Shown here piece after piece: positions 47,892-64,000 of a stretch of DNA of 64,000 nt. Where the stretch lies: the NCBI GenBank assembly GCA_045863335.1, contig BTVY01000017.1, positions 1 through 64,000 on the forward strand, written 5' to 3'. Every line of letters starts with the position of its first letter. Within the stretch, counting starts at the first letter, position 1. The position numbers and the translations under genes are program-made. A model generated the notes under the pieces. That model had not been told where the DNA came from. It made no database searches and saw only the letters and a list, made by a program, of their open reading frames with translations. Source of the stretch: Candidatus Hydrogenedentota bacterium. GTDB taxonomy: Bacteria > Hydrogenedentota > Hydrogenedentia > Hydrogenedentales > SLHB01.

Positions 47892-47968
<77 letters not shown>

Positions 47969-47978
47969 TTGAATTCCA

Positions 47979-48010: not shown

Positions 48011-48206
48011 GTGTCCGGACCCCCGAGATGTGGCACTTTGTGTGCCACTTTTTTCGGTAAACATGTTCCCCATGTGGACTTGTAATGCCTCCCGGATCGC
48101 AAAAGGAGCGCTGCCCCGCGGTCGTGCCCGTGCGCATTGCCGCGTCCGCGCCGGTCTATCCGATTGGGACTTACCGCCAACCACGCCACCGAAAAGGAGC
48201 ATGGGT

Positions 48207-48390
48207 ATGGCCAGCCTCAATTCGTATCTGAAGAAACGCGGACGCACGTACTACCTCCACTACTTCGAGAACGGCGTGCGCCAGCGCCTCAGTCTCGGCA
48301 CGGAGGACGTACAGGTCGCCAAGGAGAAGCAGCGCGTCTTTGACTCGACCCGAGTCCGGGGCGAGGACAATCCGCTGCCCACCCAGACGC
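48207..48390 (+). pseudogene. Truncated tyrosine integrase (N-terminal arm-binding region only)
   Basis: AAGGAG RBS; MASLNSYLKKRGRTYYLHYFENGVRQRLSLGT...GEDNPLPTQT next to a tRNA; no catalytic domain follows. Confidence 0.75.
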
Positions 48391-48760
48391 TCATCGGTAT
48401 AGATGGCCTGGTAGACGGCCTCGTGGCTGATGCGCATGCTCGGGTCGTCCGGGTATTCCAGGGGCAGGCTGTTGGCCACCTGCTCGGGCGTCCACCGGCT
48501 GGTGATTCGCTCAATGACGTGGTTCCAAAGGTGCCGATTCTGGAGTTTCTTTCTGGGCCGGCACGCTTTACGGCGTTGTTCATACCGCTGCTGGCCGGAT
48601 TGCGCCGTGTAGCCATTGCGGTTGCTATTGCGCCGAAGTTCCCGGGAAACCGTGCTGTGGGACCGGTTCAGAATCCGAGCAATGGCCCGGGTCCCAAATC
48701 CTGCTTCCAAAGGGCTTCTATCTGGCCACGTTCCATTGGTGTAAGATGATGAGAAGGTAT
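48390..48760 (-). pseudogene. IS30-family transposase 5' fragment (ATA start, frameshift near 48700, no DDE domain)
   Basis: SHHLTPMERGQIEAL / RAIARILNRSHSTVSRELRRN...WTPEQVAN...ISHEAVYQAIY; AGGAG RBS precedes ATA. Confidence 0.9.
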
Positions 48761-49001
48761 CGAGACTCCTTTCGGCTGTTGTTTGGCAAAACCACTGTAC
48801 CGAATTGACGCCTCGATGCCTTCCTCTTTCTCTTCTCGCCTCTTCTCGCTCCAAACTCTCCAACAGGAAAAGGGCCGCCCTTACCCTCTGTCACTCGTTC
48901 GTCGCCAATTCAGGTGAGCGACGAACGGCTCCGACGGGAAAGGGCTCAGGCCACTCCCTTCTCCAAAACTCTCCTCTGGTGCGTTTAGAATATGAATGCG
49001 C
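48390..49001 (-). mobile_element. IS30-family remnant including a probable left terminal inverted repeat
   Basis: GGTGCGTTTAGAATATGAATGCGC (48978-49001) resembles IS30-family ends; transposase fragment downstream. Confidence 0.6.
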
Positions 49002-49202
49002 GTACGAGTTAGCGTATTGACAAAACTGAGCAACTTGCTCTATTCTCTGAACGGGGTCAATCAGTGAATTCTGCAAGAAGCGCGTCTTGGGTGAAACCGG
49101 TTTCTTTCTTGGCTGCTTAGTTACCGGATCAAACGAAGTGTGGCTGGCCGTGGTGCGCTGCGCGTACCTCGCGTCGCCGTATCATGTGTGGGAGGGACCA
49201 GC

Positions 49203-50963
49203 GTGCTTTGCAAGGCTCTAAATCGTTTTGTTTCAGTTTTGTTGTGCATATCCATGGTGGTCATCTCACCTGGTTGTGCCGGAATCCAGCAGGTCGCGCC
49301 ACCCACGTCAAAACAAGCCGTTCTTGAAATGGAACTCCAGGAAGCGGAGGAGATCCGGGCGGACAAGAAGCGGGCGCAGGATATCATCGATCAGCAGTTG
49401 CGAATCGCATCGATGGCGCTGGATGCGGGCGACCCGGTTCTGGCGCGAGAGACCTTGGTTGACGCTACGGGTTGGATGGCGGCAAACAATGCCACGCCCG
49501 AAGACTTTGATGAACGAGCAGACCGCGCCACACGGATGATTGGCGGCGAAGAGCGCGACAAATACTTCCTCGGCGATCCCTACGAACAATTCGCTGCCTA
49601 CTTTCTCTTAGGTGTCCTGGACTTTCAAGCCGGCGACTACGAGAACGCCGCATCGTCATTCCGAAGTGCTTCGCTATCCGATACCTTGTCCCGTCAACCC
49701 GGATACCAATCCGACAGCTATCTCGCGTTCCTCCTGGAAGGCGTCAGCCAGCGCATGGCGGGAAACAGTGCGGCCGCGGAAGAAGCATTCCGGCTCGCGG
49801 CCAATGCCCACGGATTCCGGCAACGCATGCCCTTGGTGGCTCAGGCGATGTATCTTGGCGGCTACCACTATCTGGAAGCGCGCAAAGCCGAAGGTGGGGA
49901 CGAAAAAGAAACTGATGCCCGCTTTGACGTGGTGTTTCCGCTGGTCTTCAACCACTTGCCTCTTGCCACAGCATTGGGTAAAGACGATCTCGCGACCGTC
50001 ATTCAGCAAGCGGCCGATAGCGCGAGCGGCGCGCTTGATGCCGAGGAATTTGAGAAAGACTCGATCGAGGAAAGCGTCGCGAAAGAGTACAAGAAGGAAC
50101 TGCCTGCGGCCAAGGCGGACATTCAGGCAATTTGCGATCAGGCAGTTACCGCGTTGACGCCCGAGATGCTTGCTGCACTGGACGCAGCTGAAACCTACTT
50201 CTCCAAACTGGTCGACGAGTGCCGGAACCCGCTTACCAATACCTTTGTCATTCAGCAAACCGGAAATGCGCCGTACAAGATCCGTATGGGCGCATATGGC
50301 GAAGCGCTGCAGTTTCGTTCAGTGCCCAATCCCGTGGATCGTGCGCTGATCGCGCTCCGGCCCAGTGACGGGGCGGCATCCCAGGGGGAACGAGTCCTGC
50401 TCGCCGCGAACGGAGATTCCCTCGATTACCAGGCGCGCACGCGCGGGGGCCGCGAGATGGATCACATCTTGAAGGGAAAGGCGCAGTTCAAAGATGCCAT
50501 GTCCGTGTCGAATAACTTGGCGGCATGGGGCGGCACCGTAGCAACCACGATCGCACTAGCGCAAGCGATGACCGTTGTGACGACGGTGACGACAACAACC
50601 ACCTACACCGTCTCCTCGACGGGGGCGGTCACCGCGACGACCACGACCACGACCAGTTCTGGCATGGCCGGTTTTGGCGCCGCCGGTACGGCACTGGGAG
50701 TTGCGGCAGCCATGTACGGCATCTATGTCGTGACGATGGTGATTATGGACAGTCTGCATCCGGAAGGCGATGTCCGCGGATGGCACGAATTGCCGGACCG
50801 CTATTACTTTGCCTGCGACTCACTCGCGCCCGGCAGCTATGAGATCGAGTCCAATTACTTCGATAAGCTCGGCCAGCCGCTCGACGAAAAGACGGAGCGA
50901 TACCGCTTCACCGTAGACGGCGAGCGTCCGGCTTTGCTGTATTTGGGGACCCCATGGAGTTGA
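49203..50963 (+). CDS. COG3014-like TPR lipoprotein
   Basis: GGAGG RBS; leader ending SPGC; FLGDPYEQ...GDYENAASSFRSA and GDVRGWHELP motifs. Confidence 0.65.
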   Translation: MLCKALNRFVSVLLCISMVVISPGCAGIQQVAPPTSKQAVLEMELQEAEEIRADKKRAQDIIDQQLRIASMALDAGDPVLARETLVDATGWMAANNATPEDFDERADRATRMIGGEERDKYFLGDPYEQFAAYFLLGVLDFQAGDYENAASSFRSASLSDTLSRQPGYQSDSYLAFLLEGVSQRMAGNSAAAEEAFRLAANAHGFRQRMPLVAQAMYLGGYHYLEARKAEGGDEKETDARFDVVFPLVFNHLPLATALGKDDLATVIQQAADSASGALDAEEFEKDSIEESVAKEYKKELPAAKADIQAICDQAVTALTPEMLAALDAAETYFSKLVDECRNPLTNTFVIQQTGNAPYKIRMGAYGEALQFRSVPNPVDRALIALRPSDGAASQGERVLLAANGDSLDYQARTRGGREMDHILKGKAQFKDAMSVSNNLAAWGGTVATTIALAQAMTVVTTVTTTTTYTVSSTGAVTATTTTTTSSGMAGFGAAGTALGVAAAMYGIYVVTMVIMDSLHPEGDVRGWHELPDRYYFACDSLAPGSYEIESNYFDKLGQPLDEKTERYRFTVDGERPALLYLGTPWS

Positions 50964-51007
50964 GTGGCTCGAACGCGCGACTGGAAATGGAGGCTGAGGA
51001 GATCGCA

Positions 51008-52060
51008 ATGAAACATGAGATTTGGCTATGGTGCGGCGCGCGCGCCTTTCGTCGGATGCATTTTGTATTGGCAGGAGTACTCGTCCTTACGGCGGCAAGC
51101 GGTTGCGCGACGACACGGCAGATTAGCAAGGCAGAAAAAGCATACGAGGCCGGCAACCACCAAGCGGTCCTGGAAAACTTCGAAGAGGTCATTGACACGA
51201 AACCGGAGGTGCTGAACCGGGGCCACCGGCAAGATGAGGTCGCCCACTACCGGGACAGCCAAATCGCGTATGGATTCGACCAGGCAAAACAGGCGGAGGC
51301 CCAGGGCGAACTTGTCCATGCCTGGATTTGGTACATCCAGACGTCGGCGGTGGACGGGGAGCGCGAGGAATGCAAGCAGGCGTTGGACGAAGCAAAACGC
51401 GTGAAGCAGGCCATCGCAGATCGCTACATGGAAGAGGCGTCGAACGCCCTCGCTCGTGGGGCCAGAGTGGAAGCCGCGACCGCCGCCAGCCAAAGTGTAT
51501 GGTACGGCAACGATGCCGCCCGCGATCTGTTCCGAGAAGCCTCCCAAAGCCAGGAATTGCCGCCTTGGTTTGAGGGAGATATCACGAATGCCGACGTCCA
51601 GGGTGTCGTGCGGACCGACAGCATCGAGCGATTCCAGATTCGCGAAGTATTTGCGCCGTACGGTATCCCGGTGTATTTCGGCGAACCGCCCCGCTACTAC
51701 GTATCCATGGGTGAAATGAAGGTTGAAGGCACGCACTACACGAGAGAGGCCCCCGCGGAGTTTGCCCAATACGATGCTCTTTTCAAGATGAGCCGCAAGG
51801 CCAAGAAGAAAGGCGCTGACGCGATTATCAACGTGCAGTTCTGGACGAAGCGCAAAAAGCCATTCACACGGGGCGAGTTTGTCAAGTTTGCCGTGCTTCC
51901 GGAAGACAACGGCGATACAAAAGAAGCGATCACGCGTATCGGCGACGGCGGCCTGCCCGTGGAATCGATTGTCGCTGCCTTCGCCGGTTCGGCCGGCGCC
52001 GAATCGGCCGCTGAAGCGGATGCTTCATCTGGAATTACCGTGTCGGAGGCATCGCAATGA
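51008..52060 (+). CDS. Lipoprotein with TPR-like helices and a C-terminal YbjQ/UPF0145-like domain
   Basis: Lipobox ASGC; KAKKKGADAIINVQF motif. Confidence 0.55.
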   Translation: MKHEIWLWCGARAFRRMHFVLAGVLVLTAASGCATTRQISKAEKAYEAGNHQAVLENFEEVIDTKPEVLNRGHRQDEVAHYRDSQIAYGFDQAKQAEAQGELVHAWIWYIQTSAVDGEREECKQALDEAKRVKQAIADRYMEEASNALARGARVEAATAASQSVWYGNDAARDLFREASQSQELPPWFEGDITNADVQGVVRTDSIERFQIREVFAPYGIPVYFGEPPRYYVSMGEMKVEGTHYTREAPAEFAQYDALFKMSRKAKKKGADAIINVQFWTKRKKPFTRGEFVKFAVLPEDNGDTKEAITRIGDGGLPVESIVAAFAGSAGAESAAEADASSGITVSEASQ

Positions 52061-52716
52061 TTCGCATAGCTTTGTTCAGTCCCGGAAGCTGTCGTTCGGT
52101 TTTGATGCTGTCCGGGCTACTGGTCCTGGCGCTGGGTTGTGCGTCGGGCGGCGGGACGGCGACTCCGGCTGCTCCGCAATCCTCGAAGTACCAAGACGTG
52201 GATCGGGATTCGGGCCTTCGCGTTACCGAGATCGAAGCCCAAGACATTTCCGCCGCGGCACAACACTTCGTACGAAGCATGCTGGCAGATGACGATGTCA
52301 TGGGGTACGGCAGCGCTCCACACGTGGTGATGGAAGCGGAAGATTTTGTTGTGAATGTATCCGGGCGGCTCAACAAGGAAATGCTCATTTCTCGCCTTCG
52401 AGGTGTCATGGATCAGGAAGCAAAAGGACAGATGATTCTAGTGACACGGGAACAAATGGACCGAATTCTCAAAGAGGCCGAACTCGAACGGCAAGGGCTT
52501 GTCGGCAGTGGAACGCTGCCACGCGCAACGCGAATGTTGGGTTCGGACTTCCTGCTGCGCGGACGTATCGAGGACCACGATACGACGGACGGAACGGCCG
52601 TCGAGAAATTTACCCAGATTTCTATCGAACTCTACGACAAATCAAGTGCGCAAATCGTTTTCAGCGATTTCTACGATTTCAAGAAAAGAGCCGCGATACA
52701 TCCCGCGAATCGATAG
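52057..52716 (+). CDS. LpoB/CsgG-like lipoprotein
   Basis: Lipobox ALGC; VTREQMDRILKEAELERQG and LGSDFLLRGRI motifs. Confidence 0.7.
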   Translation: MIRIALFSPGSCRSVLMLSGLLVLALGCASGGGTATPAAPQSSKYQDVDRDSGLRVTEIEAQDISAAAQHFVRSMLADDDVMGYGSAPHVVMEAEDFVVNVSGRLNKEMLISRLRGVMDQEAKGQMILVTREQMDRILKEAELERQGLVGSGTLPRATRMLGSDFLLRGRIEDHDTTDGTAVEKFTQISIELYDKSSAQIVFSDFYDFKKRAAIHPANR

Positions 52717-52742
52717 CGCCGCACGATGACCTGGAGTTAGCC

Positions 52743-53198
52743 ATGCGAAATTGTCAGTCGGTAGTAAGGTTTCTGATCGTCCCCGTCCTCGTTGTCGGCG
52801 GCCTGTTCGGCTGCCGTTCGACGCCGGACGACGCGAAGGTGCGACAGGAAGCGACCGGTGCGCCGCTTTACGTCGAGCACCCGGCTGTCCAAATTCGCCT
52901 TAACAGCGTTGGCTTCCTGCAACCGTACCTGAACAAGGTCGTGGCCGTGGAACAAACCGGCGCGGACCGCACGGACACAAACTCGTTGCAAGCCTATGCC
53001 GTATTGCGCAATCGAACGGGACAGAACGTCGCCCTGCAAGCGCGAACCCAGTTCTTCTCGACCGAGCGAATACCGTCCGAGGGGCCGGGTGAATGGCGGT
53101 CTGTATTTCTGTCGCCACGATCGGTCGAAACCGTTCGGATGAACTCCATTGGAAAAGACCATGCATACTACTACATCGAAATCCAGGAACATCCATGA
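52743..53198 (+). CDS. YcfL/DUF1425-like lipoprotein
   Basis: Lipobox LFGC; LRNRT...LQARTQFF...W..VFL.P pattern; adjacent to the LpoB-like gene. Confidence 0.65.
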   Translation: MRNCQSVVRFLIVPVLVVGGLFGCRSTPDDAKVRQEATGAPLYVEHPAVQIRLNSVGFLQPYLNKVVAVEQTGADRTDTNSLQAYAVLRNRTGQNVALQARTQFFSTERIPSEGPGEWRSVFLSPRSVETVRMNSIGKDHAYYYIEIQEHP

Positions 53199-54499
53199 GG
53201 TGCCGCGCCATGACCATAGGTAAGATCAGCCGGATTGCGGGTGTCGTCTTGCTGGCCCTGGGATGTGCGACGATTGACCCGACTTCGGCGGCGGCCGCAT
53301 CAAACGAAACTAACGCGCTGGAGCCCTACGAGACAGAGACCCCTCCGGGGACCGTTGCGCCTCCAAAAACAACGATTCCCCGAAGGCCATACCGGCCGGA
53401 CGGCGTGGTTGAACTGCCCGAAGACCGCCCCGGCATCATGGAGTACCTGGAAGCTCAGGAGAAGGCGCGACAGGAGCAGGAGCGCCAGCAGTACGAACTG
53501 GATCGGATGCGGGTAGAGACTGAGTTGCTTAAGGAACTCAATATCTACAATGCGAACGAAAAAGGGGTCTCGAGTTCCAGTCAGTCATCCAATCCTTCCG
53601 GTGCCGCCCTCTCCACGGTTTCCCCGTCTCCGGGGCAAAGGCCTAGCGCGAGCCCGTCGGGTCCACCAGTTTCGGGGCAAGAAGGCTGGGCGGTCATAGT
53701 CGGTGTTTCCAAGTACCAGAAATCCGCATTGGACCTGACGTACGCCGCATCTGACGCGCAACAGCTTTATCGCTGGCTGATCTCGCCGGCGGGCGGAAAC
53801 TACGACGCCGAACGGGTCACATTACTTCTCGACGAGCATGCGACGAAGGCTGAGATCTCCCAGGCAATCCGGGGGCTCGAAAAGGCCCTTCCGGAAGATA
53901 TCGTCGTGTTCTTCTTCTCCGGCCACGGAGCCCCTCTCGATGACACGAGCGACATCCTATACTTTCTCCCATATGAGGCGGACAACGAGAACCTCGCCGA
54001 AACTGGATACAAGATGCGAACTCTGCTGGGCGACCTTCAAGACAATGTCAAAGCGGAGAAGCTCATTGTCGTGGCCGATGCGTGCCATTCCGGAGGCATT
54101 GGTAAGTTGCGCGGCGATCCCCGCGCTATCGTCGTTGAGAAAGTGCAAAAGGAGATGACCAAGAAAGTCAACGACGGTATGCACGAGTTGCTTCGCGGAG
54201 AGGATCGCGCGGAGACGCCGTCACTTGATGGAACCGTTATGTTTACCGCGTCGAACGCGGAAGAGGTGTCTCGCGAAGCGGCCGATTGGGGTGGCGGGGT
54301 GTTTACCCACGCGATGCTGCGGGGTTTGACGGGAAAAGCGGATCAAGATGCGAACGGGCATGTGACAGTTGGAGAACTCTCCGCTTACGTATCCCGCGAA
54401 GTACGGGAAGCAACGAACGATGCGCAGGTGCCGCGCCTTTCCGGGGACGCCGATGCGGAGTTCATTGACCGCGTAACCGTCCGCCTGATTGATGAATAG
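53195..54499 (+). CDS. Caspase-family (peptidase C14) protein with a lipoprotein-like leader
   Basis: LLALGC; WAVIVGVSKY; FFFSGHG (His) and VADACHSG (Cys); GGVFT and ADQDANGHVT motifs. Confidence 0.9.
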   Translation: MRCRAMTIGKISRIAGVVLLALGCATIDPTSAAAASNETNALEPYETETPPGTVAPPKTTIPRRPYRPDGVVELPEDRPGIMEYLEAQEKARQEQERQQYELDRMRVETELLKELNIYNANEKGVSSSSQSSNPSGAALSTVSPSPGQRPSASPSGPPVSGQEGWAVIVGVSKYQKSALDLTYAASDAQQLYRWLISPAGGNYDAERVTLLLDEHATKAEISQAIRGLEKALPEDIVVFFFSGHGAPLDDTSDILYFLPYEADNENLAETGYKMRTLLGDLQDNVKAEKLIVVADACHSGGIGKLRGDPRAIVVEKVQKEMTKKVNDGMHELLRGEDRAETPSLDGTVMFTASNAEEVSREAADWGGGVFTHAMLRGLTGKADQDANGHVTVGELSAYVSREVREATNDAQVPRLSGDADAEFIDRVTVRLIDE

Positions 54500-54508
54500 C
54501 GGAATCCG

Positions 54509-54640
54509 TCAGGGAATCGGGAGCGACACCGGCAGGGCGAGATGCTGGAAATACATGAACGTCATGTCGTTCGCGAGCGCAATCATGATCATGATGCCGA
54601 TCGCAAATAGGGCAGTGATCAATACGTATTCTAGCGCCAT
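54509..54640 (-). CDS. Small Flp/Tad pilin-like protein (43 aa; not in the ORF track)
   Basis: Hand translation MALEYVLITALFAIGIMIMIALANDMTFMYFQHLALPVSLPIP; EY motif plus hydrophobic helix; GAAGGA RBS. Confidence 0.65.
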   Translation of the reverse strand: MALEYVLITALFAIGIMIMIALANDMTFMYFQHLALPVSLPIP

Positions 54641-54677
54641 GATGAGGTTCCTTCATACCGTAACCGGGAGGCCGTTT

Positions 54678-55595
54678 GTGCATCGCATTATTGCTGGATA
54701 CCCGCGGAAACGCAAGCGGAATAGGGTCGCTGCCGAGTTCCTAATCCTATTGTGGTTTGTGTTTGGCGTTTGTTCCGCTGGCGCAGTTGCCCCGGCGGGG
54801 CACCAATCGCTCCGGGTGGCGTTGAATGGCGTGGCGGCGCCACCCGTTGCGCCAACTGCGTCAACGGCACTTCCAACCACGCCGCAAGACGTGGTGGCAC
54901 GTGTCGTCGCCGAGAAGAGCGACTGGTTCGAGTGGGTCGGGACGAGCGACGCCCCGGACGTGGTGGTGGACATCGCAGACCACCTAGATTCCGAGACCGG
55001 AGCATCGACTTGGGCCATGCGCGTGACGTCTCGCCTCGAAACGACCCAAGAAAAGAATGTGCCAGAACATTTTCCCGCGATTATTGCTATTGAACCGTTC
55101 CTTCGAATTGAGTTGCGGCGGCTGTACACCATCAAGAATCTAGCGGTCCTTGATCGTTCGGACGTACCGATCCGCTTCGGTCTGGTCGAATCGAATTCGA
55201 AAGTGCTCCAAGAAGGCAGCGAAGTCCGGTTTCGGTTCTTGTCCCCTGTTGCCGGATATATCAGCCTCGTCAATGTGGACGCGGCCGGGAACATGCATGT
55301 CATATTTCCAATCGGAGACGAGTCGAACAAAGTTAGGGCTAACGAGGAACTTGTCATCCCGCCGAGCGACCCATCGGAAGCAACCTACAAATACACAGTA
55401 GGCGGCGATCAGTTCGGTCGCGAGTACGTCAAGGTAGTCTTTTCCACGGTCCCATTGCAGATCAAAGGTGAGTTTACGGAACCGAGCGCCTACGTCAGCC
55501 GGGTGAAGTCGGACTTGGAAGGGTATCGCGACCCGCTCATTCGAATCGCGACCCAGAGCGTCTCCTACACCACGGAACCGAAGAACGGACGTTAG
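54678..55595 (+). CDS. Secreted DUF4384-domain protein
   Basis: GGGAGG RBS before GTG; signal peptide; GSEVRFRF...GYISLVNVDAAGNMHVIFP...GREYVKVVFS. Confidence 0.75.
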   Translation: MHRIIAGYPRKRKRNRVAAEFLILLWFVFGVCSAGAVAPAGHQSLRVALNGVAAPPVAPTASTALPTTPQDVVARVVAEKSDWFEWVGTSDAPDVVVDIADHLDSETGASTWAMRVTSRLETTQEKNVPEHFPAIIAIEPFLRIELRRLYTIKNLAVLDRSDVPIRFGLVESNSKVLQEGSEVRFRFLSPVAGYISLVNVDAAGNMHVIFPIGDESNKVRANEELVIPPSDPSEATYKYTVGGDQFGREYVKVVFSTVPLQIKGEFTEPSAYVSRVKSDLEGYRDPLIRIATQSVSYTTEPKNGR

Positions 55596-55643
55596 TGGCG
55601 AAGAACCGAATCCGTGGAACAGGGGCAGTAAAGGAGAAGGTCA

Positions 55644-56696
55644 TTGAAGGTGGAACAGCCTGCCGGCTTTCGGCTAATCCGTATCTGCGCGTTGTATCTG
55701 CTCGCAATCACGTGTCTATGCGGTTTCGCGTTCTCGCAAGACAATTCCGAGGACAACGAAGTGGACCAACAACTCACTCCACATCAAAAGAGGCTATTGG
55801 AAATCCTGGCCTTTGGAAACGAGTTTCGAGTCCTGGCTGCGGGAGATAGCTTTGGGACGATCGAGGCGTTTGCATCCCCGGACTTTCGGGGCCAATGGGC
55901 AACAGAAATCAAGCCCCAATTTGATGGGGATTCCGTGCTGCTTGAAGACTTCTTCTCGTCTGCGGTTCTGTTTGCGGGACGAATTGGACCCACCCGTTGC
56001 ATCCTGGTTTTCTACAATCCGTGGAGCGATGCTGCATTCTGTATGGGCGCGGATTTCGGCGAACACACCATCCTCGATGGCGCAATCCTGGCGGGCGAAC
56101 GGCTCCGTGGCGAACCGATCAACGAGAAGGCAGTCATGCCGTCATGGCAGCGCGTGGACGCCACGATCGCGGAAGGGATGGCAAAGGTGTACGTCGAGAC
56201 CGAAAAGGCGATTTCGCGCCTCTACCCGCCCACGGACAGTTACCAGCTTCTCCCCCTCTCCTTAAAGGCCTCACTTGAGCCACTCGACGTGGAGGTCTTG
56301 CCAGTGATCTTTCGCATGCGCGCCCGCATGACGATGTTCCAGGACTTTCTGTCGCCCGAGCCGGGCAGTTTCGGCGCAGAGGCGCTGGCGAATGTCGGTA
56401 GTGTGCTGGAAGCCGTGCAGGAAGGGGATAAGGAGACCTTTTTGGCGCTTACACAAGTGGATGAAACAGAAACCGCTACAGAGAACCTATTCGAGTTACC
56501 GGAATTAGTCCGGTCCCGCATGGCGCCGAATTTCTTCCTGACACGGCCTGGAGAGGGCGCGATTGCGGGCCTAGTGAATCCGGAAACACCGCAGTGGTTC
56601 GTGGTGCTTACGTTGGAGACAGGTGCATCCGGACCCGTGACCACCCGCGCCGATGTATACAAATTCGATCTGTTGCATATTTTGCTGAATGGGTGA
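55644..56696 (+). CDS. Secreted hypothetical protein
   Basis: AAGGAG RBS; signal peptide ending GFAFSQ; no recognised domain. Confidence 0.7.
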   Translation: MKVEQPAGFRLIRICALYLLAITCLCGFAFSQDNSEDNEVDQQLTPHQKRLLEILAFGNEFRVLAAGDSFGTIEAFASPDFRGQWATEIKPQFDGDSVLLEDFFSSAVLFAGRIGPTRCILVFYNPWSDAAFCMGADFGEHTILDGAILAGERLRGEPINEKAVMPSWQRVDATIAEGMAKVYVETEKAISRLYPPTDSYQLLPLSLKASLEPLDVEVLPVIFRMRARMTMFQDFLSPEPGSFGAEALANVGSVLEAVQEGDKETFLALTQVDETETATENLFELPELVRSRMAPNFFLTRPGEGAIAGLVNPETPQWFVVLTLETGASGPVTTRADVYKFDLLHILLNG

Positions 56697-56718
56697 AAAG
56701 ACAGGGGGCGGTATTACG

Positions 56719-57699
56719 ATGTTTAACGGCACGCGCTTCCCGGTGTACCTAGTGGTCGTGCTCGCACTGGGGCTTCTTCCCTATGTGCAGCCCGCATTCC
56801 TTCCGGCCGCTTCCGCTCAGGGCGTACAGAACGGCTCCCTAACGCAAGGTAGTACGCTGCAGGAAGCCCGAATCCACCCCGACAGCTCTCCGTCGCGAAT
56901 TCGAACCGCCCTCCCCCGCACGACGAGCAACAAGACGTTCCTGGACCACCTTGCTACGGCCACGAAAGCCGGGAAAATCATTACCAAGGTTGGTGAATTT
57001 GAAACGAAGAAGACCGAGCTCCTGGTCAACACGGTCGAGACGCTGGACAAGCTCTCAGATGCGGCGCTCGATGCAGATCAGGTACAAGAGTTAATCAAGA
57101 AGATTGAGAAGCGCGGCGCCTTTGGCAAGTGGGTGGGTGCCATCGCCAAGGTCGTTGATCTGGCGGACATCGCAACGCGCATCGCAAAGAAGCACCAAGA
57201 TGAAGGCCGGGTTGAGGCGCTAAACCTCGCCGTGAAGGAAGCAATAAAGTTCGGCGCAAAGAAATTGGCAGGCATGGGCGGCAAGTACGCCGGCCACACT
57301 GTCGGTGGGGCGGGCGCGACCGCGCTTACCGGTGGGGTGCCCGGCCCTCACACGGTGGCCGGAGCCGTGGCAGCGGGGTACCTCGGAGAAGAAATCAGCA
57401 AATTGGCCGCGGGAAAACTTGTAGACGAATTCTACGAGCCGTTGCTCGGCAAAATCGTACGGAAATACATACGCGAGTGGCTGGGAGACGATGGAAGGCC
57501 GCCGTCTCGCCGCGACCCCATACAACCCGTGCCGACGCCTGGGATTCAGGCAACGAGACCGCCGCCGGAGTCGGAGTTCGAAACTAACGCCAACCATGCG
57601 GACGGTGGCGAATACGATGGACCGAGTCTAGGAGACACGGCCCAAGGCGACGACTGGTACAACCAGTACCTCCGCGATCGGTTCTCAAGCTCAAAATGA
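56719..57699 (+). CDS. Secreted hypothetical protein with a glycine zipper
   Basis: Signal peptide (ASAQ); helical body; GGKYAGHTVGGAGATALTGG...AGAVAAGYLG. Confidence 0.65.
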   Translation: MFNGTRFPVYLVVVLALGLLPYVQPAFLPAASAQGVQNGSLTQGSTLQEARIHPDSSPSRIRTALPRTTSNKTFLDHLATATKAGKIITKVGEFETKKTELLVNTVETLDKLSDAALDADQVQELIKKIEKRGAFGKWVGAIAKVVDLADIATRIAKKHQDEGRVEALNLAVKEAIKFGAKKLAGMGGKYAGHTVGGAGATALTGGVPGPHTVAGAVAAGYLGEEISKLAAGKLVDEFYEPLLGKIVRKYIREWLGDDGRPPSRRDPIQPVPTPGIQATRPPPESEFETNANHADGGEYDGPSLGDTAQGDDWYNQYLRDRFSSSK

Positions 57700-57739
57700 T
57701 GCGGTTTGGGCGTAGCATACGGAGGCGACAAGAGCGATC

Positions 57740-58729
57740 ATGAAGACGGCAAGACTAACATGCGCAGTTATTCTGGGTTTCGTGGTTTCCGCGACGTCGC
57801 TCATTGCGCAGGCAGACGAGAAGTCGGCCCAACGAAGTGAGGCCGAGGCATTGGTGTCGAAGGGTATTGCCCTGAGCGACGGGTCACAGCAAGAGGAAGA
57901 GCTTTATCTTCAGGCCTACTCGCTCGACCCTACCTATACGAAGCCCCTGTTCAACCTGGGGCTCGTCTACACTGATCGGCGTCTCTATAATCTTGCGATT
58001 ACCTATTTCAAGCAATACGAAATGCTTGAGGTAGACTCGCTGGGCGTCTTGTACCAATTGGGCGCCTGCTACGATAATCTGGATGGCACGGAGAAAGCCG
58101 TCGACTACTACACCCAGTATCTGGACGCGGCTAAAGGCTCCAACGATCCCGAAGAAACCATGTACATGGAAGCTGCCGCGACCGCGCTGCGCCGCCTCGA
58201 TCCTTCGGCCGGTACATCGTATCGGGAATATATCGAGCACATCGTGAAAGTTCATAACGCCGCGACAGGCAAGGAGATTGACGCGATCCTGAGTCGCCCC
58301 CGAGTACGTGGAATGTACAAGTACGATGGGCCGCGACTCATGAAGAATATCCAGTTTGAACAGGATTCGGCAGAGTTGCTCCCGGAAGCGCGCGCGATGC
58401 TGGATCAAGTTGGCGAAAGGCTCGTCGCCGAGACACTGGCAGACAACAAGATCGGAATCGAGGGCCATACGAGCACGGAGGGCGACGAACCTTACAACAT
58501 GGGCCTGTCAGAGGCTCGCGCAAACGCGGTAAAAGAATACTTGCGCGAAAGGTTCAATATTCCCGCCGAACGACTCGACGTGTCCGCATATGGTGAATCA
58601 GTACCGCTGATTGCCGAAGATACTACTGAAGATACGCGGCGAATGAACCGCCGGGTTGAGTTCGACAACAAGGGGAGTCTTGAGCTATCGCCGGATTCCT
58701 CCGATCGTAAGAAGGTTGCGCCCCAATAA
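57740..58729 (+). CDS. TPR plus OmpA-like C-terminal domain protein
   Basis: Signal peptide; FNLG and YQLG TPRs; IEGHTS...YNMGLSEARANAV...NRRVEF. Confidence 0.9.
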   Translation: MKTARLTCAVILGFVVSATSLIAQADEKSAQRSEAEALVSKGIALSDGSQQEEELYLQAYSLDPTYTKPLFNLGLVYTDRRLYNLAITYFKQYEMLEVDSLGVLYQLGACYDNLDGTEKAVDYYTQYLDAAKGSNDPEETMYMEAAATALRRLDPSAGTSYREYIEHIVKVHNAATGKEIDAILSRPRVRGMYKYDGPRLMKNIQFEQDSAELLPEARAMLDQVGERLVAETLADNKIGIEGHTSTEGDEPYNMGLSEARANAVKEYLRERFNIPAERLDVSAYGESVPLIAEDTTEDTRRMNRRVEFDNKGSLELSPDSSDRKKVAPQ

Positions 58730-59886
58730 TGACTGAATCGAACGGCGATAACGGGCAACTGCAGGACGTCGCCGCGGCAGTCACCCAGCGCGAGATTTAC
58801 GAACACACTCTCCGGTACTTCTTCCGTTTTGTGGAGGAGCATCTCGACGACGCAACGGTATCGGAAATCATGATCAACGGACCGCGAGAGGTGTATATCG
58901 AGCGGCAAGGCCGCGTGGAAAAATCGCCTCTGAGCTTCCCCGGCCACGAAGCATTGTACGCGTCGGTGAAGAACCTGGCGCAATATGTCGGGCGTGTTCT
59001 GACGCCGGATGTCGCGCGGTTTGACGCCCGATTGCCCGATGGATCTCGAGTCCATGTGACCCTGCCTCCCTGTTCCCGCAATGGCATATGCATCGCCATC
59101 CGGAAGTTCTCAAACGTGAACTTCACGGTCGCCGACTTGGTTTCCCGGGATTCCATCAGCGAAGAAGGCGCCGAGTTTCTTCGGATATGCGTGCTGATGG
59201 AAAAGAACATGCTCGTTTCAGGCGGGACCGGCAGCGGCAAGACCTCATTGTTAAACGCCCTGTCCGGATTCATCCCCAGCACGGATCGAATCCTCGTTCT
59301 CGAGGATTCCAGCGAGTTGCGAATGCAGCAGGAGCACGTTCTATATTACGAGGCAGTTTCGGGCGATAAGCACGGGAAAGGGAGAGTCACAATCCGGGAT
59401 TTGTTTCATTCCGCCCTGCGCATGCGGCCCACGCGCGTCGTCATTGGTGAGATTCGGGGTGGGGAAGCGCTGGACTTGCTCCAGGCCATGACCTCGGGGC
59501 ACAGCGGTTCCATGTCAACGATTCACGCGAACACACCAAAAGACGCGTTGAACCGTTTGGAAACGCTTGCGCTCATGGGCGGCCTCGATCTACCCCTTCG
59601 CGCGATACGGACGCAGGTCGCGTCCGCGATTGACGTCATTGTCCAGATCAGCCGTTTTCGCGATGGTTCCCGTCGTCTCGTAGAGATCGCCGAAGTTCTG
59701 GACCTGGACCCGCAGGGCAACTACCAAACCCGGCCGATGTACGTTTTTGAATTGGAAGGGCGCCCTACCAAGTCGAAAGTCGAAGGCGTCATGCGTTGGA
59801 CGGGCAACTTGCCGACGTTTGCCGAAGAGTTACGCGCTCTCGGCTATTCGGACGAGGTGAATCTGACACGTCAGTTGTTCGACTGA
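58729..59886 (+). CDS. cpaF: CpaF/TadA-family pilus assembly ATPase
   Basis: SEIMING, DARLPDGSRV, GGTGSGKT, LRMRP..VVIGEIRG and GHSGSMSTIHAN motifs. Confidence 0.93.
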   Translation: MTESNGDNGQLQDVAAAVTQREIYEHTLRYFFRFVEEHLDDATVSEIMINGPREVYIERQGRVEKSPLSFPGHEALYASVKNLAQYVGRVLTPDVARFDARLPDGSRVHVTLPPCSRNGICIAIRKFSNVNFTVADLVSRDSISEEGAEFLRICVLMEKNMLVSGGTGSGKTSLLNALSGFIPSTDRILVLEDSSELRMQQEHVLYYEAVSGDKHGKGRVTIRDLFHSALRMRPTRVVIGEIRGGEALDLLQAMTSGHSGSMSTIHANTPKDALNRLETLALMGGLDLPLRAIRTQVASAIDVIVQISRFRDGSRRLVEIAEVLDLDPQGNYQTRPMYVFELEGRPTKSKVEGVMRWTGNLPTFAEELRALGYSDEVNLTRQLFD

Positions 59887-59889
59887 TCG

Positions 59890-62664
59890 TCAGGAAGCTT
59901 CGGCAGAAACAACTTTTCCGGGCGCCCCTTCGGCGCTGGACTGTATCTTTTGGTACACGCTGAAGTTATTCTCTTCATCCAGGAACGCATAGCGTCGGTT
60001 CGCATAGGATTCCTCGAATTTCGAAAGGTAGTAGTCGAATTTCTCCGGGTCTTCCTCCTGGTACGTCATTGCTAGGGTGAAATACGCGCACGGAAAATCG
60101 TCCCAGAACAGGAGCGCCATTTCACACGCTTGGCGGGCTCCCACGGAATCGCCCAGATTCAGCAGCGCAAATGCCCGCTCTTCAGCAGCGCGAGCACCCC
60201 ACCACCGAAACCGCTCGTTCTCAGGCATGCCGTCGACCGCCAGCGAGAATTGTTGAAGCGCAGTTTCGTAGTCGTCGATCAACCGGTAAATGTGGGCGAG
60301 TCGGTAATGACACTCCGCCCAATGCGGGTAGTCCTCCAACAACGTTTCATAGGTCTGCGCCACCTGGCTCAACACTGTGTCGCGAACCTCCGGATTCGCG
60401 CTCGCGCTGACCTCGGCCTGGCGAGCCGACCAATAGGCCCGATCTCCTTCCGTAAGCCAATCCTGGATGCCGTCCAGACCGGACGCGGCATCGGTCACGT
60501 CCCCGGATTCCAGCGCCATGCGGAAAGAGAGGATTTCGAGATCCACAAGAAGCTGTTGGTAGTACTTTCTGGAATCTTCGATTGGAAACTGAATGGCATC
60601 GAGTAGTGCATGATCCAGTTCGCCGTATAGATCCTCTGCGCGAATCAGTCCGGCCAGTTCGTTCCGGAGAGATTCCAGCGCAGGGAAGAAGCCCTGAACT
60701 TCGTTGTCAAGCCCAGGGTGATCCAGGTCGTATTTGCGTACAAACAGCCCCGTCAGTTCATATTCGATACGAAGTAGTCGAGTCTCGACGGAATCCGGCC
60801 AAGCCTTTAAGGCATTCGCGAACTCCGAGATTCCTGGGTCCATGGAGCACCGCGCCCACAACCGAATCTTTTCGAGATAATAGAGCGCCTCCAGCGATCT
60901 CCCGCCGGACCGTTCGAAGGCATCCGCGAAGTTCAACTCCGCTTCATTGAACCGCTTCTCCCGGTAGGCGGTCCGGCCCGCATTCAGGTAATCCACGACT
61001 GGTTGTACTCCCGCCACAAGTTCATCGCGCCGGGACTTGTCCAAGTCCGACACCAGAGCAAAGTGGAGGGCCTGTCGGTACTTACCAGCCACTATGAAGG
61101 GCTCCAGATCTCCGGCCACAGCTTCCATGGTCGCATCCTTGGCATTTTCCTCCGCAACCCAGGACTTCAGATCCTGGGCACGTGCCTGCACCGACTCGAT
61201 CTTCGAACCAGTCCGTTGATCGATGTTGTCGCTGCGATGCTCCCGGTCGTACTTGACAGCCAACAATTCGTCCGCGATTAATGAACTCTGCGTACGATCT
61301 CCCGCTTCCTTGGCTTCAAGCGCTTCCGCAAGACGTTGCTCCAACCCCTCCACCCAATCTGAGTCGCTTTGCAAATACTCAAACGATTGCACGAATCCCG
61401 CGAACTTCGCTTCTTTGTTGACGGACTCGATATACGCAATACCCTCTCCCGCATACGATCGCGTCGCATCGTAGGCCGATGAGTCGTAGGCTCCTAGCGT
61501 TTCCTTATACAGGTTCTGGACCTTCGCCGATATCGCTACATTAACGCGATGCAAATAGGCGATATATCCTCCTCCAGCAATCAGCAATACGATAGCGCCG
61601 CACACAACCGCAATTGTGGCAATCTTTTTCTTTGTCTTGCGGTCGGTCGTTGACAAGACCCCGGCGTCAGTCGCCTTATCTTCGTCAGGCGCATGGTCGG
61701 ATGCCGTCGTCGAATCTTCTGAGATCCGATATGAGCCGGGGTCGCGCCAGTATTCAGGAGATATGTACTGGGTGACGATGATACTCAGCACGTCTCTATC
61801 TTCGCGGGCGTCCGCGGCAAGATCCCCGAGAACATCGTCAATCGACTGGTACCGATCCGTCAGCCGCTTGGCCGTCATCTTGCTCACAATACTCGAGAGG
61901 TACTCAGGGATCTCGGGGCGGACATCGTTCAAGGGCCGTAGGATAGCATTCTCATCGCAATGCCAGTTGATCCAGCGCATCGTGTTCTGCCGGGCATCAT
62001 CGGTGAGCAGACCAGAGAACTCCGCTTCAAAACGGTCCCGGCCGCACAGGAGCTGGTAGGCCATAAATCCGATCGAGTAGATATCCGTAGCGAAATTGGC
62101 GCCCTTACTCCCTTGGTAAAGTTCCGGAGCAGCATACTGCGTCGAGATATCGTCCATGCTCAGCGTAATGTCCATACCAATCTGGACGGCAATACTGAGG
62201 TCGATAATCTTGGGAACGCCCTTGCTGTCCAGCATTACATTCGACGGCTTAATGTCGCGATGGTTAATTCCGTGTTGATGAAACGCGTTGGCCCCATTCA
62301 GCACTTGCACGGTCCACCCCGCGACGTCCTGCGGGTCGAGCACTTCTTCCCGTTGATAGAGCTGATTCAACGATACATCCAAATGCTCCATCACGAGCAC
62401 CGGGGTTTCCCGTTCAGGTCCGGGCTTGATAACCTCCAGGGCCTTGATAATGTTTGGGTGGTTAATGTGCGTCAGCCAATCGCACTCGCTCAGGTATCGC
62501 GCAACGTACTTCGGACGAAACTCTGGTAGCGTGTCCGCCGGGATGACGAACTCCTTGAGAATCACGCGCAATCCGTCATGCTTTCTCGTCCCGATGTACA
62601 ATGTAGCGCGCGGACTTCTCCCAAGTTCACGTTCCACCTCGTACTGTCCGATGATTTGCGTCAT
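59890..62664 (-). CDS. Membrane-anchored Hanks-type Ser/Thr kinase with extracytoplasmic TPRs
   Basis: VILKE, HPNII, HRDIKPSN, YAAPE and DIYSIG motifs; TM segment IAVVCGAIVLLIAGGGYI; C-terminal TPRs. Confidence 0.88.
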   Translation of the reverse strand: MTQIIGQYEVERELGRSPRATLYIGTRKHDGLRVILKEFVIPADTLPEFRPKYVARYLSECDWLTHINHPNIIKALEVIKPGPERETPVLVMEHLDVSLNQLYQREEVLDPQDVAGWTVQVLNGANAFHQHGINHRDIKPSNVMLDSKGVPKIIDLSIAVQIGMDITLSMDDISTQYAAPELYQGSKGANFATDIYSIGFMAYQLLCGRDRFEAEFSGLLTDDARQNTMRWINWHCDENAILRPLNDVRPEIPEYLSSIVSKMTAKRLTDRYQSIDDVLGDLAADAREDRDVLSIIVTQYISPEYWRDPGSYRISEDSTTASDHAPDEDKATDAGVLSTTDRKTKKKIATIAVVCGAIVLLIAGGGYIAYLHRVNVAISAKVQNLYKETLGAYDSSAYDATRSYAGEGIAYIESVNKEAKFAGFVQSFEYLQSDSDWVEGLEQRLAEALEAKEAGDRTQSSLIADELLAVKYDREHRSDNIDQRTGSKIESVQARAQDLKSWVAEENAKDATMEAVAGDLEPFIVAGKYRQALHFALVSDLDKSRRDELVAGVQPVVDYLNAGRTAYREKRFNEAELNFADAFERSGGRSLEALYYLEKIRLWARCSMDPGISEFANALKAWPDSVETRLLRIEYELTGLFVRKYDLDHPGLDNEVQGFFPALESLRNELAGLIRAEDLYGELDHALLDAIQFPIEDSRKYYQQLLVDLEILSFRMALESGDVTDAASGLDGIQDWLTEGDRAYWSARQAEVSASANPEVRDTVLSQVAQTYETLLEDYPHWAECHYRLAHIYRLIDDYETALQQFSLAVDGMPENERFRWWGARAAEERAFALLNLGDSVGARQACEMALLFWDDFPCAYFTLAMTYQEEDPEKFDYYLSKFEESYANRRYAFLDEENNFSVYQKIQSSAEGAPGKVVSAEAS

Positions 62665-62731
62665 GATCTCTCCATCTCTTTGGTACGCCAACTATCGATT
62701 CCAAAGAAAGCCATGTGGACGCGGCGAAGGA

Positions 62732-63478
62732 CTAACTTTTCGAATCCTCCGATTGACGCATCTCCTGGCGCCGTAATTCCTCGACGATAAACTGGTACAA
62801 CTTGTCGTTTACCAAACCGTCACGGGTCGTATCGTTGTGCTCATACGTCAATTGAAGGACCGCGCGAAGCTGCTCAATGGTAACCTTCCGATCGACGAGT
62901 CGGGTGTCGTGAACGAGTATCTCCCGAAGCGAGTTGCGCAATTCATCCTTGTGCGGCAATGAACTTCTGGCGTGGGCGGAATCCAGCATCTGAATGCGTT
63001 CCTTAACCGGGACCTCCCACCACTCTTGACCGGGATTCATGAGAAAGTATCCCATGACGCCGAATGCGAAAACGAGGTAGATTGCAACGAGTGTAAAACG
63101 CACACTCGCGTTCTTGGACCGAACGCGGACCTCGTCGCCCGGCGCGGCGACTTCCGGTTTTGCTTCCGTTCCCGCCCGGGCCGCACCGTGCAAAAACGTC
63201 AGAACGGATTCACCAATACGCAACTCGTCACCGTGCGACAACACCGCCTGGACCGTCTGGCGTTCATTAACATAGAACGGCGCCTTGCCCTTGCGAATGG
63301 CGACAAACTGTTCACCAGACCGTTGAAGCATGACCTGTATCGGCGAGACGTCTGCGCCTTCAAGGTGCACGTCGCATTTGGGACTGCTCCCCAGGAGGAT
63401 CGTGTCCTTGTTTAATGCGTAGTCAGTCTGGCGAAGGCGCCCCTTCTTGGCCTTCAAAACTGGTTGATGCGAAGCCAT
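62732..63478 (-). CDS. FHA-domain membrane protein (degenerate phospho-binding residues)
   Basis: ILLGSSPKCDVHL...VSPIQ...FYVNE...LSHGDELRIG; one TM helix. Confidence 0.8.
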   Translation of the reverse strand: MASHQPVLKAKKGRLRQTDYALNKDTILLGSSPKCDVHLEGADVSPIQVMLQRSGEQFVAIRKGKAPFYVNERQTVQAVLSHGDELRIGESVLTFLHGAARAGTEAKPEVAAPGDEVRVRSKNASVRFTLVAIYLVFAFGVMGYFLMNPGQEWWEVPVKERIQMLDSAHARSSLPHKDELRNSLREILVHDTRLVDRKVTIEQLRAVLQLTYEHNDTTRDGLVNDKLYQFIVEELRRQEMRQSEDSKS

Positions 63479-63503
63479 AATCGTATGCTCTGTCTCCTGA
63501 TGG

Positions 63504-64000
63504 CTATTGGAACGACGATGAATTGAACTGAATAACGGCAGGGCCCAGTACGAGAATGAAGGTTGCCACCATGATTAGCACAACGGGAAACGTCATTTTG
63601 GATGCGGCTTCTTTCGCAAGCTTTTCCGCCCGCTGGGTTCGCTTCAGACGTAGCAAATCCGATTGCTCTTGAAGAACACGGGCCAGCGGCGTACCCATTC
63701 TGATCCCTTGACCGATTGCTTGTACGATGACCACGATGTCATCTGATGGAATCCGACGAGCGAGATTGCCAAGTGCATCGACCAACACGGCGCCATGCGC
63801 TACCTCCTGGTTGACCAGCGCGAATTCTTCGCGCAATGCTCCGTAGCTGGACTCCCGCGCCACCACCTCAAGCCCTTCCTGCACGCTCCCGCCGCCTTCA
63901 ATAATCAATAGGAGCATATCGAGCGCGTAGGGAAGATCTTTATTGATGCTTCGTACACGTTCGCTCGCGTCAGACGAAAGGTAAAACCATGGTAGGCCGA
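63504..64000 (-). CDS. tadC: TadC-like type II secretion system F-family protein (5' end outside window)
   Basis: Frame open to the window end: LPYALDMLLLIIEGG...GTPLARVL...AEKLAKEAASKMTFP. Confidence 0.88.
   Translation of the reverse strand, partial: GLPWFYLSSDASERVRSINKDLPYALDMLLLIIEGGGSVQEGLEVVARESSYGALREEFALVNQEVAHGAVLVDALGNLARRIPSDDIVVIVQAIGQGIRMGTPLARVLQEQSDLLRLKRTQRAEKLAKEAASKMTFPVVLIMVATFILVLGPAVIQFNSSSFQ

Follow-up and report, generated by a model that had tools for sequence, protein, structure and literature searches.

The 64,000-nucleotide (nt) window studied here is the start of contig C17 (BTVY01000017.1) in a 6.75-Mb, 99% complete genome of a Candidatus Hydrogenedentota bacterium; its genes at 49203-64000 form the left half of a genomic island, and the remaining Tad operon lies beyond the window, at contig positions 64000-72855. 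We find that the island encodes a Tad machine with two ATPase motors and no secretin, which belongs to a two-motor lineage related to the Kil system of Myxococcus xanthus. The chief yield of the analysis is a new family of Tad-linked proteins, represented by g07 and followed by a variable cargo slot. All inner-membrane components of a Tad system are present on the island: two major Flp pilins, an adapter Flp, a TadE/TadG/TadE set, a peptidase, CpaB, and TadB/C. An earlier note on this DNA had recognized a Tad machine from the tail of the operon; it missed a second, FHA-fused ATPase and the absence of a secretin.

The g07 gene (55644..56696, + strand) encodes an exported protein of a family that is absent from Pfam and has 105 relatives at 50% clustering. 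Its model is confident (predicted local distance difference test [pLDDT] score, 93), and its C-terminal half is NTF2-like (Z, 9.0; root mean square deviation, 3.3; 104 aligned); the whole protein gave no significant match in Foldseek. Ankyrin repeats are present in 10 of 13 long homologues. Among 135 genomes of the phylum, g07 occurs in the host genome and in G004, the same two that have both motors. It is also a Tad-operon gene in another phylum, that of genome G950, where 14 of 201 genomes contain 16 matches, with the L299 copy recovered by hand. Twelve of the 16, several being close kin, belong to Tad loci, and 11 of these immediately follow TadG. It was not found in G553, G137, G139, G136, or G950 and so is not universal in the lineage.

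All 16 g07 genes are followed by a co-oriented gene for a protein of 178 to 1013 amino acids (aa) with a signal-like N terminus, at a spacing of -4 to +26 nt in the 15 cases measured, and a metagenome locus (L171) has the same arrangement. The slot holds glycine-zipper proteins, helical repeats, and, in other genomes only, a GHSxG lipase and a protein with what we take to be a phospholipase A2 (PLA2)-like motif; no shared amphipathic-helix signal stood out among these cargos. On the island, the slot is occupied by g08 (56719..57699, + strand), an exported helical glycine-zipper protein and candidate effector. Pairwise, g08 resembles glycine-zipper proteins from the slot (E values of 3e-6 and 8e-6 in a 20-sequence set); it has no family match, and atlas leads to glycine-zipper and colicin proteins stayed below threshold (0.83 to 0.84). 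The earlier note had listed two secreted unknowns here; both exist, and what escaped it is that g07 and its variable partner form a conserved Tad-linked accessory.

Structure modeling indicates that g07 probably binds g08. The complex model scored 0.64, compared with 0.09 for the best of three controls, and the mark set for such models was reached by 116 of 157 solved pairs and 2 of 215 mismatched pairs. Its runs share at least 22% of their contacts, and the partner pLDDT is at least 40. The modeled contact is made by g08 residues 72 to 87, which hold a TFLD helix motif common to G004. Judged from sequence and model, the two would constitute an adjacent exported variable protein and its binding partner, as in polymorphic toxin-immunity pairs. 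The C terminus of g08 carries the motif GDDWYxxYLxD after an unconserved linker and is kept in G004 (57640-57699; L025:12900-12953); it is a possible second recognition signal. In genome G553, a two-motor Tad locus contains an ankyrin protein paired with a Lipase_3 protein (L235:17011-19489), which resembles an immunity-effector pair; G553 has a second two-motor Tad locus (L217).

The nine + strand genes at 49203-58729 are followed by a CpaF gene, g10, and all of the open reading frames (ORFs) named in the earlier note are where it placed them. The ninth gene, g09 (57740..58729), encodes an exported TPR-OmpA protein that is predicted to bind peptidoglycan, and the ATG of g10 overlaps its stop codon by one base; the earlier note had described the CpaF as translationally coupled. 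The g10 product is a short second ATPase of 385 aa (58729..59886, + strand; T2SSE), which we call CpaF2. This operon converges, at a distance of 3 nt, on a minus-strand arm that consists of g11, a transmembrane Ser/Thr kinase with periplasmic TPRs (59890..62664); g12, an FHA-transmembrane protein (62732..63478); and TadC (T2SSF; 63504..64000, continuing to contig position 64415). Past the window, the minus-strand genes up to 72855 encode TadB, FHA-CpaF (g15; 624 aa), CpaB, g17, TadE, TadG, TadE, an A24 prepilin peptidase, and two Flp pilins. The Tad parts present are thus Flp, the A24 peptidase, CpaB/RcpC, the TadA ATPase, TadB, TadC, and the TadE/G minor pilins; no TadZ/CpaE localizer was found among the island ORFs. 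LpoB, Peptidase_C14, DUF4384, OmpA, T2SSE, Pkinase, FHA, and T2SSF are Pfam matches above cutoff, and the Flp and TadE calls come from motifs and local profiles rather than Pfam.

Both ATPases keep the Walker A, Asp box, Walker B, and His box motifs. The signaling proteins are less well preserved. In the g11 kinase, the Lys and HRD are kept, DFG has become DLS, and the glycine loop is lost; the catalytic Asp is absent in 7 of 23 aligned kinases of related loci, including that of G004. The FHA domain of g12 lacks the phosphothreonine-binding Arg, and that of FHA-CpaF, which consists of FHA and T2SSE domains, keeps Arg and Ser and lacks Asn. The exported protein g17 (C17, 68070-68978; L001:10070-10978), encoded between TadE and CpaB, has no name and no Pfam family, and an atlas search gave only unnamed clusters; it is a conserved gene of two-motor loci of both the Myxococcota and the Planctomycetota type.

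One pilin is hidden. On the minus strand at 54509..54640, antisense to the operon, lies a gene for a 43-aa leaderless Flp of an adapter-pilin family with an LPxP tail. It is 72% identical in G004, with 6, 6, and 26 substitutions at the three codon positions, and the + frame opposite it is broken by a stop codon in G004; we conclude that it is under purifying selection. Searched against all six frames of the whole genome, an 18-sequence adapter-pilin profile placed it second (E = 0.003). These results bear out the pilin-like gene that the earlier note had suspected. Short Flp proteins with an LPxP tail accompany the major Flp in related loci, and the adapter pilin lacks a leader peptide in the host genome, G004, and G137. 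By position and size, the hidden pilin appears KilK/KilO-like. Downstream is g06, an exported DUF4384 protein (54639..55595, + strand; Pfam), whose start is uncertain and at position 54639 or later; a longer ORF from 54489 was discounted because the overlap is a shadow of the antisense pilin. In both genomes, the start codon of the pilin and an in-frame ATG of the DUF4384 ORF overlap (CATG; 54638-54641 and, in G004, L025:9757-9760), which may be incidental. DUF4384 proteins are described as accompanying proteases (10.1101/2022.08.17.504292, PMC7475262).

We placed the two motors in a careful tree of 42 rows, comparing alternative groupings by the approximately unbiased (AU) test. FHA-CpaF lies in a 9-row clade (support, 99/97) within a broad group of FHA ATPases, and CpaF2 lies in a separate 15-row clade (100/100). 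Grouping of FHA-CpaF with canonical TadA (six sequences) was rejected (AU P = 0.002). Sisterhood of the two motor clades was seen in two quick trees and was gone in the careful one; we do not claim it. FHA is kept in some basal members of the CpaF2 clade (L231, L239, L240-L242, and L037:7975-9441). The data suggest that the short motor arose via duplication, followed by FHA loss.

CpaF matches at E ≤ 1e-80 occur in 14 of 135 genomes of the phylum, and only G004, which is from another family, also has both a full-length FHA-CpaF (62%) and a short CpaF2 (75%); five congeners (72 to 93% complete) gave no match. G004 repeats the Tad gene order beside tRNAs and an integrase remnant, and its second contig carries pilin-DUF4384-g07-g08-TPR-OmpA-CpaF2 at 24 to 75% identity. 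A Halioglobus-titled record has DUF4384-OmpA, a leaderless pilin, and CpaF2, followed by Tad genes in the same order and by FHA and kinase genes; in G137, DUF4384-OmpA, pilin, and CpaF2 adjoin one another. The CpaF2 query matched 90 of 161 genomes in the phylum of G135 (Myxococcota), a count that includes other CpaFs, and, at stricter cutoffs, 41 of 351 Planctomycetota and 17 of 301 Acidobacteriota genomes; the comparison drew on 60 regions around top matches. We conclude that the island belongs to a lineage of two-motor machines that is related to Kil and includes a sub-branch without secretins. This extends Kil-like machines, homologues of which are listed in 47 phyla (PMC12075869), to hosts of the Planctomycetota and Verrucomicrobiota types and to island-borne copies in wastewater bacteria. 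In the open full-text literature, with most subscription journals out of reach, we found no description of a Tad with two ATPases and no secretin, of an association of Tad with caspases or LpoB, or of a Tad-linked adaptor-cargo pair, although the published list of kil homologues may include such loci.

The island has no secretin. The Tad-type secretin N-domain PF13629 is absent from both the host genome and G004, an observation that is only suggestive because the secretins of related planctomycetes belong to a longer type. The host genome has seven secretins above cutoff, all in other gene neighborhoods as judged by reading their ORFs. Within the wider FHA-CpaF motor clade, where some locus pieces are incomplete, a secretin lies in 1 of 19 locus pieces, compared with a secretin at the corresponding position in 10 of 10 Myxococcota-type and 6 of 6 Verrucomicrobiota-type loci checked; those six carry g07. 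In 18 of these 19 loci, CpaB lies immediately before the motor; a kinase was found in 12. The secretin may have been lost in this sub-lineage, with the LpoB/CsgG-clan block or a borrowed pore as its replacement. In G553, the LpoB/COG3014 block occupies the place where two relatives have a secretin and a TPR lipoprotein, which hints at a replacement role.

Comparison with described systems sets the island apart from each. It shares Flp, prepilin peptidase, CpaB/RcpC, TadA, TadB/C, and TadE/G with the canonical Tad/Cpa systems of Caulobacter and Aggregatibacter, which, unlike the island, have an RcpA secretin, TadD, and TadZ, and from whose TadA its motor is excluded in the tree. The canonical Tad reportedly uses a single bifunctional ATPase. 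Two questions follow: why a Tad should have two intact motors although Caulobacter manages with a single bifunctional ATPase, and how a diderm Tad works without its own secretin. The likeness to Kil (clusters I and II; PMC8460266, PMC12075869) is closer: an FHA-fused CpaF (KilF), FHA genes after TadC, CpaB, TadB/C, an A24 peptidase, a small adapter Flp that accompanies a set of three tip pilins, and no TadZ. Kil has one ATPase and an essential short secretin, KilC, in contrast to the two intact ATPases and missing secretin of the island. The island, single and in a nonmyxobacterial host, is alone in having a transmembrane kinase in the operon, the g07-cargo pair, and lipoprotein and caspase accessories. 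It is Kil-like in anatomy and lacks two Kil features, the single ATPase and KilC.

The Tad of Bdellovibrio bacteriovorus, which functions in predation, likewise has several TadA paralogues and TPR and FHA neighbors, but it has RcpA, a TadZA fusion, dispersed loci, and no TadV (10.64898/2026.07.08.737194). Polymorphic toxins exported by Sec or the type II secretion system with Imm-NTF2, Imm-Ank, or caspase domains (PMC3482391) also place a variable payload with a signal peptide beside an NTF2-fold protein; Imm-NTF2 proteins are often ankyrin-fused there, and the C-terminal caspase domains on variable N termini in G004 are a further likeness. The island differs in that g07 lies upstream of its cargo, is ~340 aa long, and is tied to Tad tip genes; the toxins of that paper are not known to use Tad for export. 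How Kil and Tad pili intoxicate prey is described as open, with tip-associated toxins only hypothesized (PMC12075869). The g07-cargo slot provides the first concrete, named, small candidates for pilus-delivered cargo and a possible loading factor.

We tentatively favor, at slightly below even confidence, a Kil-related pilus or pseudopilus for contact-dependent antagonism that presents g07-bound cargo. Sec would export g07 and g08 to the periplasm, where g07 would grip an N-terminal helix of g08 and serve in loading, in immunity, or in both roles. The pilus would then push or present the cargo at the contact site via a borrowed secretin; alternatively, a short periplasmic pseudopilus could be anchored by TPR-OmpA. 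The kinase/FHA pair, which may be partly noncatalytic, would gate the timing of assembly. The caspase-DUF4384 pair and the LpoB/COG3014/YcfL block would be interchangeable envelope accessories, and the caspases might be additional cargo instead of maturases. While linkage and anatomy are observed, we infer toxicity, the export route, and the division of labor between the motors. Conservation of gene order in G004 and the Halioglobus-titled record argues for this reading, as does the analogy to Kil, of which an FHA-fused motor and FHA genes after TadC are hallmarks (PMC8460266). The earlier note's proposal of a Kil-like attack or sensing machine is plausible, with its caspase-maturation part unsupported. 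Chance juxtaposition is unlikely because caspase, LpoB, and COG3014 links to Tad recur in other genomes and FHA-CpaF falls outside canonical TadA.

A number of observations pull the other way. Besides the close kinship of several g07 matches, 4 of the 16 are not in Tad loci, and a CpaF match is lacking altogether in two of the genomes concerned. By an independent profile, the likeness of g08 to other cargos drops to E = 0.005, an unrelated genome ORF scored better, and such scores are composition-prone; a word-indexed search found no relative of g08. Most cargos, including the helical repeats and the proteins of 180 to 194 aa, have no toxin domain. In the complex model, the g08 fold is uncertain. 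Conservation at the g07 interface does not exceed the average (P = 0.53), which fits either covariation with the cargo or a wrong pose. A direct sister grouping of FHA-CpaF with L101, a KilF proxy picked by its kilA-C-F-D gene order and a by-eye match to a published KilF row, was rejected (AU P = 0.015). The FHA domains lack key residues and many kinases look degenerate, and the absence of an island secretin leaves the exit route unexplained.

A broader version, which is possible if somewhat doubtful, is a Tad-based polymorphic effector system of several uncultured phyla, in which g07 beside TadG would load Sec-exported effectors on the two-motor pilus. The effectors would be interchangeable and membrane active (glycine-zipper pore formers, lipases, and PLA2), and g07 would capture their N-terminal helix. 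In a rather unlikely alternative, a pseudopilus without a secretin would sense conditions in the periplasm or at the outer membrane and would signal via the transmembrane kinase and FHA proteins, with the lipoproteins, OmpA, and caspase as envelope-remodeling outputs and g07-g08 as a structural tip or envelope complex. Sensing is favored by the rarity of secretins in the 19 clade loci compared with the Myxococcota type, by the kinases found in 12 of the 19, by the occurrence of g01-g04 among kinase, FGE, and FHA genes without Tad in genome G093, and by the NTF2-like folds that are also structural parts of type IV secretion systems (TraM and TcpC-like rows in our fold comparison). It sits poorly with a hypervariable slot that includes lipase and PLA2-like proteins, with the secretins of the six Verrucomicrobiota-type g07 loci, and with kinases and FHAs that often look degenerate.

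We regard as unlikely a pilus for adhesion or aggregation in sludge granules and biofilm, with a borrowed host secretin and the slot proteins as adhesins or surface coat. Adhesion is the usual role of Tad pili (PMC12075869), near-identical DNA comes from sludge, bioreactor, and biofilm metagenomes, and the host has seven secretins to lend; yet the tree test separates the motor from canonical TadA, TadZ and RcpA-type genes are lacking, and no adhesin domains were detected in the slot. Very improbable is that the + strand operon is unrelated cargo that gathered on an island beside a Tad locus of the ordinary kind or one in decay. The LpoB trio often occurs alone, caspases are absent from most related loci, and the mobility genes are broken, but all 24 island ORFs are intact, the run from pilin to CpaF2 is kept in G004 despite its divergence, DUF4384-OmpA, pilin, and CpaF2 are adjacent in G137, and g07 recurs in Tad operons of another phylum. 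This explanation is largely refuted for g06-g10 and remains for g01-g05 only.

The caspase, g05 (53195..54499, + strand; Peptidase_C14), is a lipoprotein with a lipobox and a p20-like domain whose His244/Cys297 dyad is intact, and it is the only C14 match in the host genome. In G004, four exported caspases flank the pilin-to-CpaF2 genes and a fifth follows the kinase; all five dyads are intact, and the extra domains differ. Caspases were found near this Tad system only in the host genome, G004, and G139, and a local caspase profile retrieved nothing from the Planctomycetota-, Myxococcota-, and Verrucomicrobiota-type Tad loci examined. A core role was rejected: among 195 pieces with TadG, TadB, or CpaB matches (each ≤21 kb, duplicates and canonical Tad included), only L188 has a caspase on the same piece, with the host genome, G004, and L027 linked via adjacent pieces. 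We conclude that the caspase is a recurrent accessory in three lineages. The earlier idea that a periplasmic caspase matures an exported effector found no support, as no substrate was identified and most related Tad loci have no caspase. Nor does g05, with its lipobox, resemble caspase-effector defense, in which a cytoplasmic caspase lies beside a pore-forming substrate; PADLOC gave only generic caspase, kinase, and OmpA domain matches and none for g07 or g08.

The remaining + strand genes form an accessory block: g01, a TPR protein of 586 aa that is presumably COG3014-like (49203..50963); g02, a lipoprotein with a weak YbjQ-like C terminus below cutoff (E = 5e-4) and an orthologue in G093 (51008..52060); g03, an LpoB/CsgG-clan lipoprotein above cutoff in Pfam (52057..52716); and g04, a YcfL/DUF1425-like lipoprotein (52743..53198). 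The earlier lipoprotein labels hold for LpoB and fall short for YbjQ; the YcfL-like protein has no Pfam match itself and matches two DUF1425-positive proteins (E values of 8e-5 and 8e-4). A profile of nine LpoB/YcfL-linked proteins matches g01 at E = 5e-45, although eight of the nine had themselves been retrieved with the profile of g01; fold searches gave only generic TPR matches, none at E ≤ 0.001. Residues ~415 to 525 of g01 (50420-50760) form an insertion of a glycine-rich helix, Thr-rich beta-hairpin, and helix, modeled with low confidence; it is present in most, not all, homologues and could insert in the membrane.

The LpoB/COG3014/YcfL block adjoins CpaF2 in three unrelated lineages: the host genome, G553 (COG3014-like gene, E = 5e-29; DUF1425 above cutoff), and G1144 (E values of 3e-21 and 2e-9). 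In hhalign, the g01 profile matched L235 and L183 weakly, with probabilities of 18% and 4%; the link is made only by the broader profile. The trio is also common on its own, and g01-g04 occur in the same order in G093 (L261, G093:C7:318000-337999), a genome without CpaF, amid Ser/Thr kinase-FGE, FHA, and zinc-ribbon genes. The trio as a core part was rejected; that of G004 adjoins gap/pgk. Among 351 Planctomycetota genomes, 41 matched CpaF2 and 34 matched the g01 profile; G381 alone matched both, with the two genes on different contigs, in a search that missed the G553 copy. We conclude that this block, like the caspase, is a recurrent accessory in three lineages and not core.

The island is 25.6 kb long and is integrated at tRNA-Met (47892..47968, + strand). 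A 49-bp direct repeat of the tRNA 3' end (47921-47969 and contig 73519-73567; 48 of 49 positions identical) and a low GC content (0.568 versus 0.600 ± 0.012 for the genome, equally low in 3 of 222 genome windows) agree in upholding the earlier description of the genes as island-borne. No intact integrase was found in the island; mobility genes persist as broken remnants, among them an IS30-like transposase fragment (HTH_38; 48171..48863, minus strand) in a decayed region where strains differ by indels. The assembly is sound: four of four other runs cover all 30 bins of the region, and a 12.7-kb metagenome contig of ~97% identity spans 49011-61575. We conclude that the Tad machine was horizontally acquired on a mobile island. 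Promoter and terminator scans were at chance level (5 versus 6.0 and 15 versus 16.3, respectively), and an RNA-labeled run (X5) covers island and flank equally and so gives no evidence of expression. Just inside both island ends is a 41-bp direct repeat with an internal hairpin (48025-48065 and contig 73377-73417), possibly arm-type integrase sites. Elsewhere in the lineage, in an Acidobacteria record (G139; L027:3563-11161), genes for a ubiquitin-like set of ThiF E1, UBC E2, JAB, vWA-RING, and FHA proteins lie immediately upstream of those for CpaF2, the adapter pilin, and a pseudokinase, in the same orientation; an E1 gene near CpaF2 is likewise present in L232.

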